Part shown: piece by piece, positions 3,364 to 23,649 of the stretch | Layout: each line of letters begins with the position of its first letter | Position numbering within the stretch: position 1 is the stretch's first letter | Virus genome (UHGV): UHGV-0864142 | From: a virus | Direction: 5' to 3' (one strand) | DNA length: 24,513 nucleotides | Notes under the pieces: generated by a model | Seen by the model: only the letters and a program-made list of their open reading frames with translations | Databases searched by the model: none | Told to the model about the DNA's origin: nothing | Position numbers and translations under genes: made by a program

Positions 3364-4617
3364 TTACTGCCCGGCAATAACGATGCCCGTATATTCAGGA
3401 ACCAGTACAGAGCAACCGTACAGAGTGGTGAAACGCGCAGTGGTTACGCCTTTGATGTGGTCGAAGGCGTAAGACATGATCAGCGTAGCGCCCTGCTCGG
3501 TGGTTGCCGTCATTACCTGTGGACCCTGACCAGTTGGGAACGCCAGTTTGCCGTACATCAGTTCAACAGAACCATCAGCCCAGAACAGGTTAGCCGGTGC
3601 GGCATTTTTGTTGAGAATGGTGATTGCTGCGCTACTTGCCGCATTAGCATCAACGTTTGCATATGGACGGCTGGCGACATCCGCGTTGTCAGGCGGCAGA
3701 ATTTTCGGGGAGATAGTTACTGTCGTTCCGCTAACTGCCAGAACGCGGAATACCTGCGGCTGCCCGGTGGTATCTTTGGTGATCTGGTGTACGGAATTCA
3801 CCCCTGCGATGGTAAACGCATCGCCAACCTGCAAGCCTTCAGCAGATACCGTAATGGTCCCCTGTCGGTTATCCACTGGCATATCGTTAGCATCTTTCGC
3901 TTCAACCTTGTGCGCAGGTGCTGCTGCCAGCGTAATGGAAGTTGCTGTACCCTTCGGAACACGACCAGAAATATCGGTCTTGTAGCTATCGAAGGACGCA
4001 ACCGGAGGGATCTGCGCTTTTTCGTATGCTGTCAGGGTTGCGCCCTGAGCATAGGCACGGTGACCAAGCTCGCCAGCAAGGTCTTTATAGTTGAAGGGGT
4101 TCCAGAAAGAGCGGCGGTTGATACCCTGTGGTACACCAATCGCCGTCATGGTGGCATCAATACCTGCCGCACAGTTCCACAAATCACGGCCCTGTGAACC
4201 AGTGGTTGAGTCAGCCATTGTGATCACGTTAGTAGCACGCTGCGTGACCATGGAAATCAGATCAGAGTCAATCTGTGCAGCAAGGCGCATACCTGCGGCG
4301 CGACCAGCTTCAGTTTTATGTTCCGGGTCACGCATTTCACGCGCATCCAGAGTGTACAGAATGTTTTTCGGCTCCTTGAACACTGAAGGAACAAGGCGCT
4401 GAACCAGTGCTGTTGGCGTTTTGCCGCTGAGATCGAGGCCTTCCTCAATGTTCATGTGGTAATGCTGCGGACGATACAGAACATCACCTGCTCGCTGCAT
4501 TGCTGTATCACCGGGACGGAATTTTTTAGCGTTACGGGAAACTACGCAGGCGGCCTCAAAGCCTTCAACGTAGTTTTCGAACATGATTTCAAGGTCTTTT
4601 GCTAATTGGTTAGCCAT
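3364..4617 (-). CDS. Major capsid (coat) protein, P22/Sf6-like (417 aa)
   Basis: Lies between the scaffold and gp4 homologs. Size fits P22-family coat. C-terminal region (NLFWADGSVELMYGK) resembles the P22 coat motif FWADDAIRIV as recalled. Confidence 0.85.
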   Translation of the reverse strand: MANQLAKDLEIMFENYVEGFEAACVVSRNAKKFRPGDTAMQRAGDVLYRPQHYHMNIEEGLDLSGKTPTALVQRLVPSVFKEPKNILYTLDAREMRDPEHKTEAGRAAGMRLAAQIDSDLISMVTQRATNVITMADSTTGSQGRDLWNCAAGIDATMTAIGVPQGINRRSFWNPFNYKDLAGELGHRAYAQGATLTAYEKAQIPPVASFDSYKTDISGRVPKGTATSITLAAAPAHKVEAKDANDMPVDNRQGTITVSAEGLQVGDAFTIAGVNSVHQITKDTTGQPQVFRVLAVSGTTVTISPKILPPDNADVASRPYANVDANAASSAAITILNKNAAPANLFWADGSVELMYGKLAFPTGQGPQVMTATTEQGATLIMSYAFDHIKGVTTARFTTLYGCSVLVPEYTGIVIAGQ

Positions 4618-18409: not shown

Positions 18410-18616
18410 TCAACTCACAAAACGCCACGCCATTTTTGCTACAGCGACAGGCGCAACACCGATAATCACCCAGACAAATGCAGCGCCAAACAACGTATAC
18501 CATGGGTCTTTACCGTCATTCACAAGACGAATGTAGCTATGCAGAACAATAAAAAACGTCAGAAGAATCCATCCAACGCCAACGCATTTGAATGCGACGA
18601 GCATAAACTCAGCCAC
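18410..18616 (-). CDS. Small membrane protein (68 aa, or 64 aa from ATG 18604)
   Basis: GTG 18616 preceded by GGGGGAGAG SD. Two predicted TM segments (GVGWILLTFFIVL and LFGAAFVWVIIGVAPVAVA). Confidence 0.5.
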   Translation of the reverse strand: MAEFMLVAFKCVGVGWILLTFFIVLHSYIRLVNDGKDPWYTLFGAAFVWVIIGVAPVAVAKMAWRFVS

Positions 18617-21525: not shown

Positions 21526-21571
21526 ATTCCCGCATTTCGGCGGGAATGAGGACCATGACTGTTAAAGAGCG
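21526..21571 (-). promoter_or_regulatory. nutR: boxA (CGCUCUUUAACA) and boxB hairpin (AUUCCCGC-CGAAAU-GCGGGAAU)
   Basis: boxA-like element 8 nt after the cro stop, with a hairpin 12 nt further. The same boxA/boxB pair occurs upstream of N (nutL). Confidence 0.65.
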
Positions 21572-21577
21572 GTGTTA

Positions 21578-21772
21578 CTATTTGTTTTTCTTGTTGCTTG
21601 GGAAAGGACGAACTTCCTCTCCAATCACACTGCCATCAGGCTTTACCGTAACCATGATGTTACGGCCTGCCAGAATGGCCTTGCTGATAGCGCACTGGAT
21701 TACACCAAAGTCACTGGCTGCTTTAGCCTGTCCATGGATTTTGGCGTAATCGGCAAGTGTCATTCGAATCAT
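21578..21772 (-). CDS. cro: Cro repressor (64 aa)
   Basis: Resembles lambda Cro as recalled (ITL.DYA...GQ.K.A.D.GV.Q.AI.KAI.AGR.I......DGSV..EEV.PFPSNKK). ATG 21772 with GGAGAG SD; the track start is a GTG two codons upstream. Confidence 0.85.
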
Positions 21773-21801
21773 ATGCACTCTCCGTTATTAACCATGAACA
21801 A

Positions 21802-21872
21802 AGAATACTACAGGTATTCAAGGCAATCAATACTCAGGGTATTTTTAGTTTAAGTACCTTAGCTATTAGAAT
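21802..21872. promoter_or_regulatory. Right operator region: OR1/OR2/OR3 (AATAC-N5-GTATT) overlapping divergent promoters PR (cro) and PRM (cI)
   Basis: Perfect 15-bp palindromes at 21804-21818 and 21829-21843; degenerate third site at 21853-21867. PR (minus strand): -35 TTGATT, 17-nt spacer, -10 TATTCT. PRM: candidate -10 TAGAAT at 21867-21872, 6 nt before the cI ATG. Confidence 0.65.
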
Positions 21873-21878
21873 TAAGCT

Positions 21879-22595
21879 ATGGAAAATAAAAAATCACTGA
21901 CGACAGAACAGCTCGAAGACGCTAAGCGGCTTAAGGCTTTGTATGAGTCAAAAAAGAAAGAATTGGGAATAACCCAATACTCAATCGCTGATGAACTGGG
22001 TATCACCCAAGGAGCGGTAGGGCATTATCTTAATGGCAGAAATGCGCTAAACGTTGAGGTTGCATCTGGTTTTGCACGATTATTGCAAGTCTCAATTGCT
22101 GATTTTAGCCAGTCAATTGCTGCCAAGGTTGCAGAACAGGCAGAAAGCCTTAAGAGCGATGCCAACGTAAGGTATGCAGGGGAATACAGAGCAGGAAAGA
22201 GGTATCCGGTGTTAAGCAGTATCCAGGCTGGCTCGTGGTGTGAAGCATGCGAACCATACACCATTAAAGACATAGATGTTTGGCTTGAGTCTGACGCGCA
22301 TATTCAAGGTAATGCGTTTTGGCTTAAAGTGGAAGGTGATTCAATGACGGCACCGGTTGGGTTAAGCATTCCAGAGGGAACATTCGTTCTTTTCGATACC
22401 GGAAGGGAGGCGATCAACGGCAGCTTGGTCATAGCAAAACTTTCTGACTCTAACGAAGCAACATTCAAGAAGCTGATAATCGACGGCGGAAATAAATACC
22501 TCAAGGGACTTAACCCTGCATGGCCTCTCGTGCCAATCAATGGAAACTGCAAGATTATAGGCGTTGCAATTGAGACAAAACTAAGGCTGGTTTGA
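21879..22595 (+). CDS. cI: CI-type prophage repressor (HTH plus LexA-like S24 autopeptidase domain), 238 aa
   Basis: Ends resemble lambda CI as recalled (KK.LT.EQLEDA.RLKA.YE.KK.ELG; FWL.VEG.SMTAP; FKKLI.D). Ala-Gly cleavage site (SIQAGSW), catalytic Ser in GDSM and Lys in FKKL. Recognition helix region differs, implying distinct immunity. Confidence 0.92.
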   Translation: MENKKSLTTEQLEDAKRLKALYESKKKELGITQYSIADELGITQGAVGHYLNGRNALNVEVASGFARLLQVSIADFSQSIAAKVAEQAESLKSDANVRYAGEYRAGKRYPVLSSIQAGSWCEACEPYTIKDIDVWLESDAHIQGNAFWLKVEGDSMTAPVGLSIPEGTFVLFDTGREAINGSLVIAKLSDSNEATFKKLIIDGGNKYLKGLNPAWPLVPINGNCKIIGVAIETKLRLV

Positions 22596-22612
22596 TCACG
22601 CAAGGGGCGCTT

Positions 22613-22981
22613 ATGGTTGGAACCGCTATAGCAAGCTTTTTTGGGATGTTGGCAATCTCGACAATTTACGGCTTAGCGCATGCTTTTATTGCGAAATCTC
22701 TATCAGAAAAAATAAGCCAGGCTTGGGCGCATAGATCAGCTCGTTTCATGATTCTGGTGATCATGGCAATACAAGGGATATCTGCATTTTTCCTCTATGG
22801 ATCAAGCTTATACCTATTGTATCAAGGCGCGACATTTACGCCTTACACCAGTGATTACGGAACTCTATACGATGGTAGTGAAGACATCTCTATGGCTTGG
22901 ATTGTCTTTGGTTTATCTATGGCCGTGTCTGTTGTAGCAGACATCATTAAGGTAATTCTCGTCTTAACCTTCGCTGACTAA
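22613..22981 (+). CDS. Three-TM membrane protein (122 aa) in the rex position downstream of cI
   Basis: ATG 22613 with AAGGGG 5 nt upstream, 18 nt after the cI stop. Three long hydrophobic segments. No similarity to RexA/RexB that I recognise. Confidence 0.65.
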   Translation: MVGTAIASFFGMLAISTIYGLAHAFIAKSLSEKISQAWAHRSARFMILVIMAIQGISAFFLYGSSLYLLYQGATFTPYTSDYGTLYDGSEDISMAWIVFGLSMAVSVVADIIKVILVLTFAD

Positions 22982-23068
22982 CCCATAATCCCGGCAGCAA
23001 TAGCTATCGGGATCCACTTCACATATCCCGCATAAAAAGCACTGAACAAGCAGACACCGAAAAAAATA

Positions 23069-23155
23069 AATATCCTTTGTATTCATTTGCTTATCATTAT
23101 TTCACCAAAAATAAATACCTTGGGTATTTACACAATAAAATACCTACAGTATTCT
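23069..23155 (+). promoter_or_regulatory. Left operator region OL with promoter PL (-35 TTTACA 23127-23132, -10 TATTCT 23150-23155)
   Basis: Perfect AATAC-N5-GTATT sites at 23114-23128 and 23139-23153, same half-sites as OR. Weaker third site AATAT-N5-GTATT at 23069-23083. Promoter hexamers overlap the operators. Confidence 0.6.
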
Positions 23156-23200
23156 TTAGCCATCAGCAGGACGCTGGTAGCCAAACGGAACAGATTGGCA

Positions 23201-23242
23201 GGCTCTTTAACATTGATGGGATTGTCCCGCCGAAATGCGGGA
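23201..23242 (+). promoter_or_regulatory. nutL: boxA (GGCTCTTTAACA) and boxB hairpin (UCCCGC-CGAAAU-GCGGGA)
   Basis: Same boxA core and identical boxB loop/stem as nutR, with the same 12-nt boxA-boxB spacing. Lies between PL and N. Confidence 0.65.
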
Positions 23243-23349: not shown

Positions 23350-23649
23350 ATGACAGTAGTCATTACATATCTGGCTGACGATAACGCCAGAAATCGCCGC
23401 AGAGCACGCAGACAGGCTCAACGTGAACAGGCAATGCAAGAGCAGCGACTGGCGCGAAAAATTGCGCTAAAGCTCTCTGGTTGCGTCAGAGCAGACAAAG
23501 CAGCATCACTCGGAAGCCTTCGCTGCAAGAAGGCAGAAGAAGTCGAGCGTAAACAGAACCGTATTTACTACCGCAAGCCACGCAGTGAAATGGGGGTGAC
23601 TTGTGTTGGTCGCCAGAAAATGAAATTAGGCAGCAAACCACTTATTTGA
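23350..23649 (+). CDS. N: N-type transcription antiterminator (99 aa)
   Basis: Arg-rich N-terminal motif (NARNRRRARRQAQREQ). C-terminal ...RKQNRIYYRKPRSEMGVTCVGRQKMKLGSKPLI resembles the lambda N C-terminus (...RKNQRTWYSKPGERGITCSGRQKIKGKSIPLI) as recalled. GGAGG SD. Confidence 0.85.
   Translation: MTVVITYLADDNARNRRRARRQAQREQAMQEQRLARKIALKLSGCVRADKAASLGSLRCKKAEEVERKQNRIYYRKPRSEMGVTCVGRQKMKLGSKPLI

Follow-up and report, generated by a model that had tools for sequence, protein, structure and literature searches.

The window, meaning the whole stretch of 24,513 nucleotides of the virus genome UHGV-0864142 that was analysed, carries an immunity region built around the divergent genes cro and cI (Table 1). 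The protein encoded by cI is composed of a helix-turn-helix N-terminal domain and an S24 LexA-like self-cleavage domain, and the spacer of 106 bp between the two genes encloses OR. Past cro, the gene cII, a small ORF, a replication gene and a gene for a DnaB-type helicase were found; the replication gene is called O in related phage records and had only a weak match to DUF7376 in Pfam. Past the OL pair lie ral and an N-like gene which encodes 99 amino acids here as against 90 annotated in HK620. As one set of palindromic sites is situated in the cro-cI spacer and the other one before the N-like gene and ral, the first set was assigned to OR and the second to OL.

Some further features were observed around these genes. 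The nutL and nutR sites have in common a boxA-like sequence, (G/C)GCTCTTTAAC, and the boxB hairpin, TCCCGCCGAAATGCGGGA, is identical in both. Directly 3' of cI, the rexAB genes of lambda are replaced by an hkaS-like ORF that encodes a hydrophobic, likely membrane protein belonging to no Pfam family, and this ORF is a candidate for an exclusion gene expressed in the lysogen. The end of the hkaS-like gene is overlapped by a 40-codon ORF on the opposite strand, the ATG of which (23085-23083) abuts the OL3 candidate, while the candidate spans its next five codons. Additional hypothetical proteins are present at this place in some related phage records, and the 40-codon ORF may be spurious.

Table 1. 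Features of the immunity region, with positions in the window; HK620 frames are by alignment with AF335538
Feature	Position	Strand	Sequence	HK620 frame	Remarks
nutR	about 21526-21571				boxA-like sequence and boxB hairpin
cro	21578-21772	-			Pfam Cro E 3.6e-26; lambda Cro structures E 5e-19; cro annotation of HK620
PR	21802-21830	-	-35 TTGATT (21830-21825), -10 TATTCT (21807-21802)		17-bp spacer; directed towards cro; read from sequence
OR1	21804-21818		AATACTACAGGTATT	21803-21819	Perfect match; HK620 OR1; overlaps PR -10
OR2	21829-21843		AATACTCAGGGTATT	21828-21844	Perfect match; HK620 OR2; 2-bp overlap with PR -35; abuts PRM -35
PRM candidate	21844-21872	+	-35 TTTAGT (21844-21849), -10 TAGAAT (21867-21872)		17-bp spacer; read from sequence
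OR3	21853-21867		AGTACCTTAGCTATT	21852-21868	10/12 consensus positions; HK620 OR3; abuts and overlaps PRM -10
cI	21879-22595	+			HTH_3 E 8e-10; Peptidase_S24 E 5e-24; full-length to lambda repressor 3bdn E 2.9e-52
hkaS-like ORF	22613-22981	+			Position of lambda rexAB
40-codon ORF	22963-23085	-			May be spurious
Probable OL3	23069-23083		AATATCCTTTGTATT		10/12 consensus positions; centre-to-OL2 distance 45 bp
Deposited HK620 OL3			TTATCATTATTTCACCA	23091-23107	4/12 consensus positions
OL2	23114-23128		AATACCTTGGGTATT	23113-23129	Perfect match; HK620 OL2; 2-bp overlap with PL -35
PL	23127-23155	+	-35 TTTACA (23127-23132), -10 TATTCT (23150-23155)		17-bp spacer; promoter scan 9/12
OL1	23139-23153		AATACCTACAGTATT	23138-23154	Perfect match; HK620 OL1; 4-bp overlap with PL -10
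nutL	23201-23242				boxA-like sequence and boxB hairpin
N-like ORF	23350-23649				Weak N_peptide match, E 8e-4

Operator sites and promoters

The palindrome AATAC-N5-GTATT (AATACNNNNNGTATT) was matched exactly at four places in the whole 24.5-kb window, namely OR1, OR2, OL2 and OL1, and no perfect copy was found in it outside these two pairs. The mean count expected from 100 dinucleotide-preserving shuffles of the window was 0.01, and none of the shuffles reached four. A preliminary description of this DNA had reported four perfect 15-bp palindromes with identical half-sites, centred 25 bp apart at both OR and OL and accompanied by one weaker site in each region, and all of these were recovered: the centres lie at 21811 and 21836 in OR and at 23121 and 23146 in OL, and the weaker sites are those of OR3 (two mismatches) and of the probable OL3 (one mismatch in the ten fixed bases). 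The motif search across the window had been set beforehand as a check, and the density outside the control regions was not similar to that within them. When two mismatches were allowed, 13 matches were counted in the window against 8.1 expected, the six control-region sites being counted in, and the matches of this class outside the control regions are scattered at the chance rate.

As the sixth position of the half-site was a pyrimidine in all eight perfect half-sites, the site was refined to AATACY-N3-RGTATT. With these 12 positions, the window holds four sites without any mismatch, none with one and four with two, the last being the OR3 and OL3 candidates together with matches at 18496 and 23710. 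As OR3 is the weakest match, the sequence does not reveal whether Cro prefers this site as it does in lambda.

Both early promoters have the -10 hexamer TATTCT overlapping an operator half-site, in agreement with the preliminary description, and their layout is the same: at PR and PL alike, O1 shares 4 bp with the -10 and O2 shares 2 bp with the -35. PR agrees with the sigma-70 consensus at 8 of 12 positions, which is below the cut-off of the scanning tool, and hence it was not listed by the scan; it falls within pR as annotated in HK620, and PL, which is directed at nutL and the N-like gene, is the annotated pL. The PRM candidate is without annotation in the HK620 record, and its assignment is probable: the 17-bp frame of OR3 ends with the first two bases of its -10, as in lambda. 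As the ATG of cI (21879) comes 7 nt past this -10, the cI mRNA is probably leaderless, again as in lambda.

Relation to HK620 and to lambda

The operators are already known, the same sites being annotated in the GenBank record of HK620 (AF335538; Clark et al. 2001), which gives OR1, OR2, OR3, OL3, OL2, OL1, pR, pL, tIMM, nutL and nutR. Its OR1-3, OL1 and OL2 are the sites of the preliminary description set in 17-bp frames. Between 21400 and 23400 the window has 98.8-99.1% DNA identity to mEpX2, phi296/phi367, HZ41, HK140, HK620 and HK630, and similar identity to HF4s and two Stx2c-converting phages across 96-97% of this interval. Comparison with the HK620 and lambda immunity groups placed the operators in the HK620 type, as every base of OR1-3, OL1-2 and 23069-23083 is identical among the window, HK620 and mEpX2; a single A/G difference from HK620 lies between OR1 and OR2. 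CI is 99.6% identical to that of HK620 and 100% to that of mEpX2, and Cro is 100% identical to both. The remainder of the window differs from the HK620-type phages, being a P22-like mosaic for which the best phage record covers 65%. Of 5,426 complete E. coli genomes, 146 contained the immunity module (21578-23160), in one case on a plasmid; the copy in E. coli CM2010-0578/1, a chicken isolate (NZ_CP087564), was 100% identical, and Stx2c-converting phages have the module as well. In the searchable literature, the HK620 paper excepted, no binding, footprinting or operator-mutant data were found for the HK620/mEpX2 immunity type, nor any other relevant experiments on its operators, its immunity or its Cro. 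The window thus carries the HK620 immunity module, and the new points are incremental: a refined consensus in the structural frame of lambda, a corrected OL3 candidate, a set of diverged spacers and the breadth of the operator class.

The three OR sites are related and 2-fold symmetric, and with the third centre at 21860 they are spaced by 25 and 24 bp, compared with 24 and 23 bp in lambda; their centres lie at -68, -43 and -19 from the cI ATG here and at -66, -42 and -19 in lambda. In both phages the site is symmetric about a base pair, and O1 lies over the -10 and O2 over the -35 of PR and PL. In the 17-bp frame the half-site reads n1-A2-A3-T4-A5-C6-Y7, whereas that of lambda reads T1-A2-T3-C4-A5-C6-C7 (TATCACC). 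The earlier statement that the half-sites differ from those of lambda therefore stands for positions 1, 3 and 4, chiefly 3-4, but it understated the kinship, since positions 2, 5, 6 and 7 are common to both (A2, A5, C6 and C/T7 are kept). Sites of the lambda type, TATCAC-N5-GTGATA (TATCACCGCCAGTGGTA), were absent from the OR and OL control regions even when three mismatches were allowed, and the N-terminal domain of CI is 53% identical to that of lambda; membership of imm-lambda was rejected on these two grounds. From this absence of lambda-type sites, heteroimmunity to lambda is to be expected.

Conservation among relatives and the third OL site

Scanning of viral contigs for tandem sites (two sites with a 10-bp spacer), followed by tblastn, gave at least 120 loci and at least 47 distinct cro-cI spacers, the adjoining CI and Cro being 46-100% and 44-100% identical to those of the window. 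Among the loci listed, all 47 spacers have sites at -67 to -70 and at -43 to -45 from the cI ATG, and at -20/-21 a third site with at most two mismatches is present in 39 of the 47, the alignment revealing a more degenerate version in the other eight. OR1 is perfect in every one of these 47 listed spacers, OR2 has 0-2 mismatches and OR3 has at least one mismatch throughout. In most of the diverged loci the tandem pattern had matched OL, since OR1-OR2 there is 24 bp, and as these loci were recovered through the OL pair, their OR sites had no part in the selection. When 49 distinct sequences, comprising the 47 spacers and named phages, were aligned, the information was close to its maximum in the columns of the half-sites and of the PRM -10, and low in the centres and the inter-site spacers. 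The hexamers equivalent to those of PR are kept in this alignment, and TAGAAT, TACAAT or TAATAT stands at a constant distance from OR3 and the cI ATG in the relatives. Among the loci listed, which amount to 1.17 Mb of related viral DNA, 415 perfect sites were counted, of which 384 are clustered; the other 31, judged by eye from their coordinates, lie mostly beside cI, many of them at the OR1 position. The pattern of conservation is directly observed, as are the sequences, the geometry and the homology.

This footprint bears on whether the matches might have arisen by chance or from base composition in two AT-rich promoters with a common TATTCT -10, as O1 partly coincides with the -10 hexamer and O2 partly with the -35. 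There is hardly any probability left for such an origin, as four sites were observed against 0.01 expected, the promoter-distal half-sites are conserved equally, and the motif and its spacing persist in the 47 diverged spacers of the loci listed while the -10 varies among TATTCT, TATTGT and TATTAT; the shuffle counts and the conservation in these spacers effectively refute it. Almost no weight can be given either to the inverted repeats acting as RNA or DNA hairpins, such as attenuators or terminators. OR1 and OL2 do fold at -5.6 and -5.7 kcal/mol, but OR2 and OL1 reach just -1.8 and -1.0 kcal/mol and none of the four is followed by a T-run. The sites are moreover located within promoter DNA (-10, -35 and the spacer between them), before the points at which PR and PL transcripts start, and the relatives keep the half-site sequence itself, without compensating changes in the arms. 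A hairpin function was accordingly rejected from the folding of the four sites, and their reading as operators was retained.

The operator class was found well beyond the HK620-type phages. Hafnia phage Pocitis76, Serratia phage OS31 and Erwinia phage vB_EhrS_49 have the same CI helix and carry AATACY-N3-RGTATT at the same positions. In the modules of named phages and Enterobacterales prophages, CI is 46-88% and Cro 44-86% identical to the window's, OR1 and OR2 are spaced by 24 or 25 bp, and the offset of OL3 from OL1 is -46, -55 or -70. A genome scan, with one genome per species, revealed tandem sites beside CI/Cro homologues in Tatumella, Pectobacterium, Providencia, Kluyvera, Photorhabdus, Pantoea, Phytobacter, Siccibacter, Lelliottia and Enterobacter. 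An example of a relative locus is L125 (2927-2989), and others are L133, L140-L143 and L150-L156. Separately, tandem AATAC(A/G)-N3-(C/T)GTATT sites were seen in Pseudomonas cichorii, P. capsici and Pseudomonas sp. (L154, L155 and L157), about 430-470 bp from the end of CI-like genes (41-43% identical) with the helix T-P-G-A-V-G-H-W, and no Cro homologue was detected at these three loci. Tandem matches in Bacilli, Oscillospiraceae, Muribaculaceae and Phycisphaerales were mostly without CI/Cro neighbours and were set aside as chance or unrelated occurrences.

The relatives were also informative on the third OL site. The segment deposited as OL3 of HK620 contains two of the substitutions between the window and HK620 in the aligned OL region, and between 23084 and 23113 no 15-mer with three or fewer mismatches to the 12-position consensus was found; with its 4 of 12 positions, it was rejected as a motif site. 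Among the relatives in the set of at least 120 viral-contig loci, the third OL site occupies three discrete offsets from OL1, at -46, -54/-55 or -70 in the loci listed, and the -70 class, to which the window belongs, recurs in the listed loci with CI 47-88% identical and with differing site sequences. As 23069-23083 agrees with the consensus at 10 of 12 positions against 4 of 12, and as the -70 offset is recurrent, it is the likelier site, and OL3 is probably located there instead of at the deposited position. The resulting OL2-OL3 distance of 45 bp, compared with 20 bp in lambda, has no lambda precedent.

Recognition helices and the proposed switch

With CI residues numbered as in lambda by full-length alignment, residues 43-55 read T-Q-G-A-V-G-H-Y-L-N-G-R-N here and G-Q-S-G-V-G-A-L-F-N-G-I-N in lambda, so that Gln44 is retained and Ser45 is replaced by Gly. 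Residues 26-35 of lambda Cro are Y-Q-S-A-I-N-K-A-I-H, and in the Cro of the window Ser28 is replaced by Cys and the Asn by Ser. In the lambda proteins, bp 2 is contacted by Gln27 of Cro and Gln44 of CI, and bp 4 by Ser28 of Cro and Ser45 of CI (PMC5222340); in lambda Cro, moreover, the Ser at H2 contacts bp 4-5 and the Asn of the helix contacts bp 3 (PMC6649833). Both Gln residues and bp 2 are kept in the window, and both Ser residues are lost (Cys in Cro, Gly in CI) and bp 4 is changed. The departure from lambda at bp 3-4 would thus match the loss of Ser in both helices, a change that appears coherent for both proteins. An 'evolutionary code' described for Cro pairs Gln at H1 with A+2, Ala at H3 with A+5 and Lys at H6 with C+6 (PMC6649833). 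As Gln, Ala and Lys occupy these positions in the window Cro, the code predicts exactly A2, A5 and C6, the bases that are present in the operator.

On the side of CI, 39 variants of the N-terminal domain from the loci listed, with 53-95 of 95 residues identical to the window CI, have Q44, G45, V47, G48, H49, Y50, N52 and G53 invariant and either A or G at residue 46. For codons 41-58, the loci listed gave 58 distinct DNA sequences in which all 18 third positions are variable, and invariant helix residues combined with variable third positions signify purifying selection rather than recent exchange. As a separate observation, Escherichia phage Fostie (L126) has the helix TQSAVGHYLNG with G45S, and AGTAC-N5-GTACT sites at -67, -43 and -19 (2920-2990); a further AGTAC-type site at 3816-3830, downstream of its cI, is probably OL. 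Fostie may represent a one-residue, one-base shift of specificity.

The palindromes could be bound by CI only or by Cro only, with the other regulator acting elsewhere as in some non-lambda switches. Two Cro helix subtypes, one of them HQTAISKAIR, were found among relatives with the same operators, which implies some looseness between Cro and its site, and both subtypes retain Gln, Ala and Lys at H1, H3 and H6. Lambda CI and Cro use common operators, and the CI and Cro of the window are orthologous to this pair. The Cro code fits the sites, and the CI helix does not change among the loci that have them. Both CI and Cro have lost, in parallel, the Ser by which bp 4 is read, and the alignment of the 100-bp spacer has no second conserved repeated motif. 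Binding by one regulator alone was hence considered improbable, and binding of both proteins to the same sites was preferred.

We conclude that the sites very probably serve as OR and OL in a lysis/lysogeny switch of the lambda type with HK620 immunity. This reading is supported by the position of the sites, which flank the divergent cro and cI, homologues of lambda Cro and CI. The locus holds divergent cI and cro, a repressor with helix-turn-helix and S24 domains, a protein of the Cro fold, a tripartite OR, and OL at PL before an N-like gene, by which a lambda-type switch is recognised. The working of the switch may be proposed from lambda, from which binding, cooperativity, activation and the immunity phenotype are inferred. 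CI dimers would bind the 2-fold symmetric AATACY-N3-RGTATT sites, and CI on O1 and O2 would mask the -10 and -35 elements of PR and PL and turn off early lytic transcription. CI bound at OR2 would abut the weak -35 of PRM, probably stimulating its own leaderless transcript, and the imperfect OR3 over the -10 of PRM may provide negative autoregulation. In lytic growth, Cro on the same sites would turn down PRM and the early promoters, and RecA-stimulated self-cleavage by the S24 domain would lift the repression.

The specificity of operator and repressor sets which temperate phages can superinfect a lysogen, so that from the immunity type of a prophage one may predict which phages it excludes and how it behaves on induction. 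The relatives allow a wider proposal, to which we give slightly less than an even chance: that the sites, together with a single CI recognition helix (Q-G-A/G-V-G-H-Y), define a cross-genus 'super-immunity group' of at least 12 Enterobacterales genera, in which OL3 is mobile, its distance from OL2 being 21, 30 or 45 bp, and the deposited OL3 of HK620 is misplaced. If this is true, very different repressors (CI identity down to 46%, Cro to 44%) could cross-repress each other's phages. The diverged spacers, 47 or more in number, together with the invariant helix, constitute a natural data set for the co-evolution of repressor and operator.
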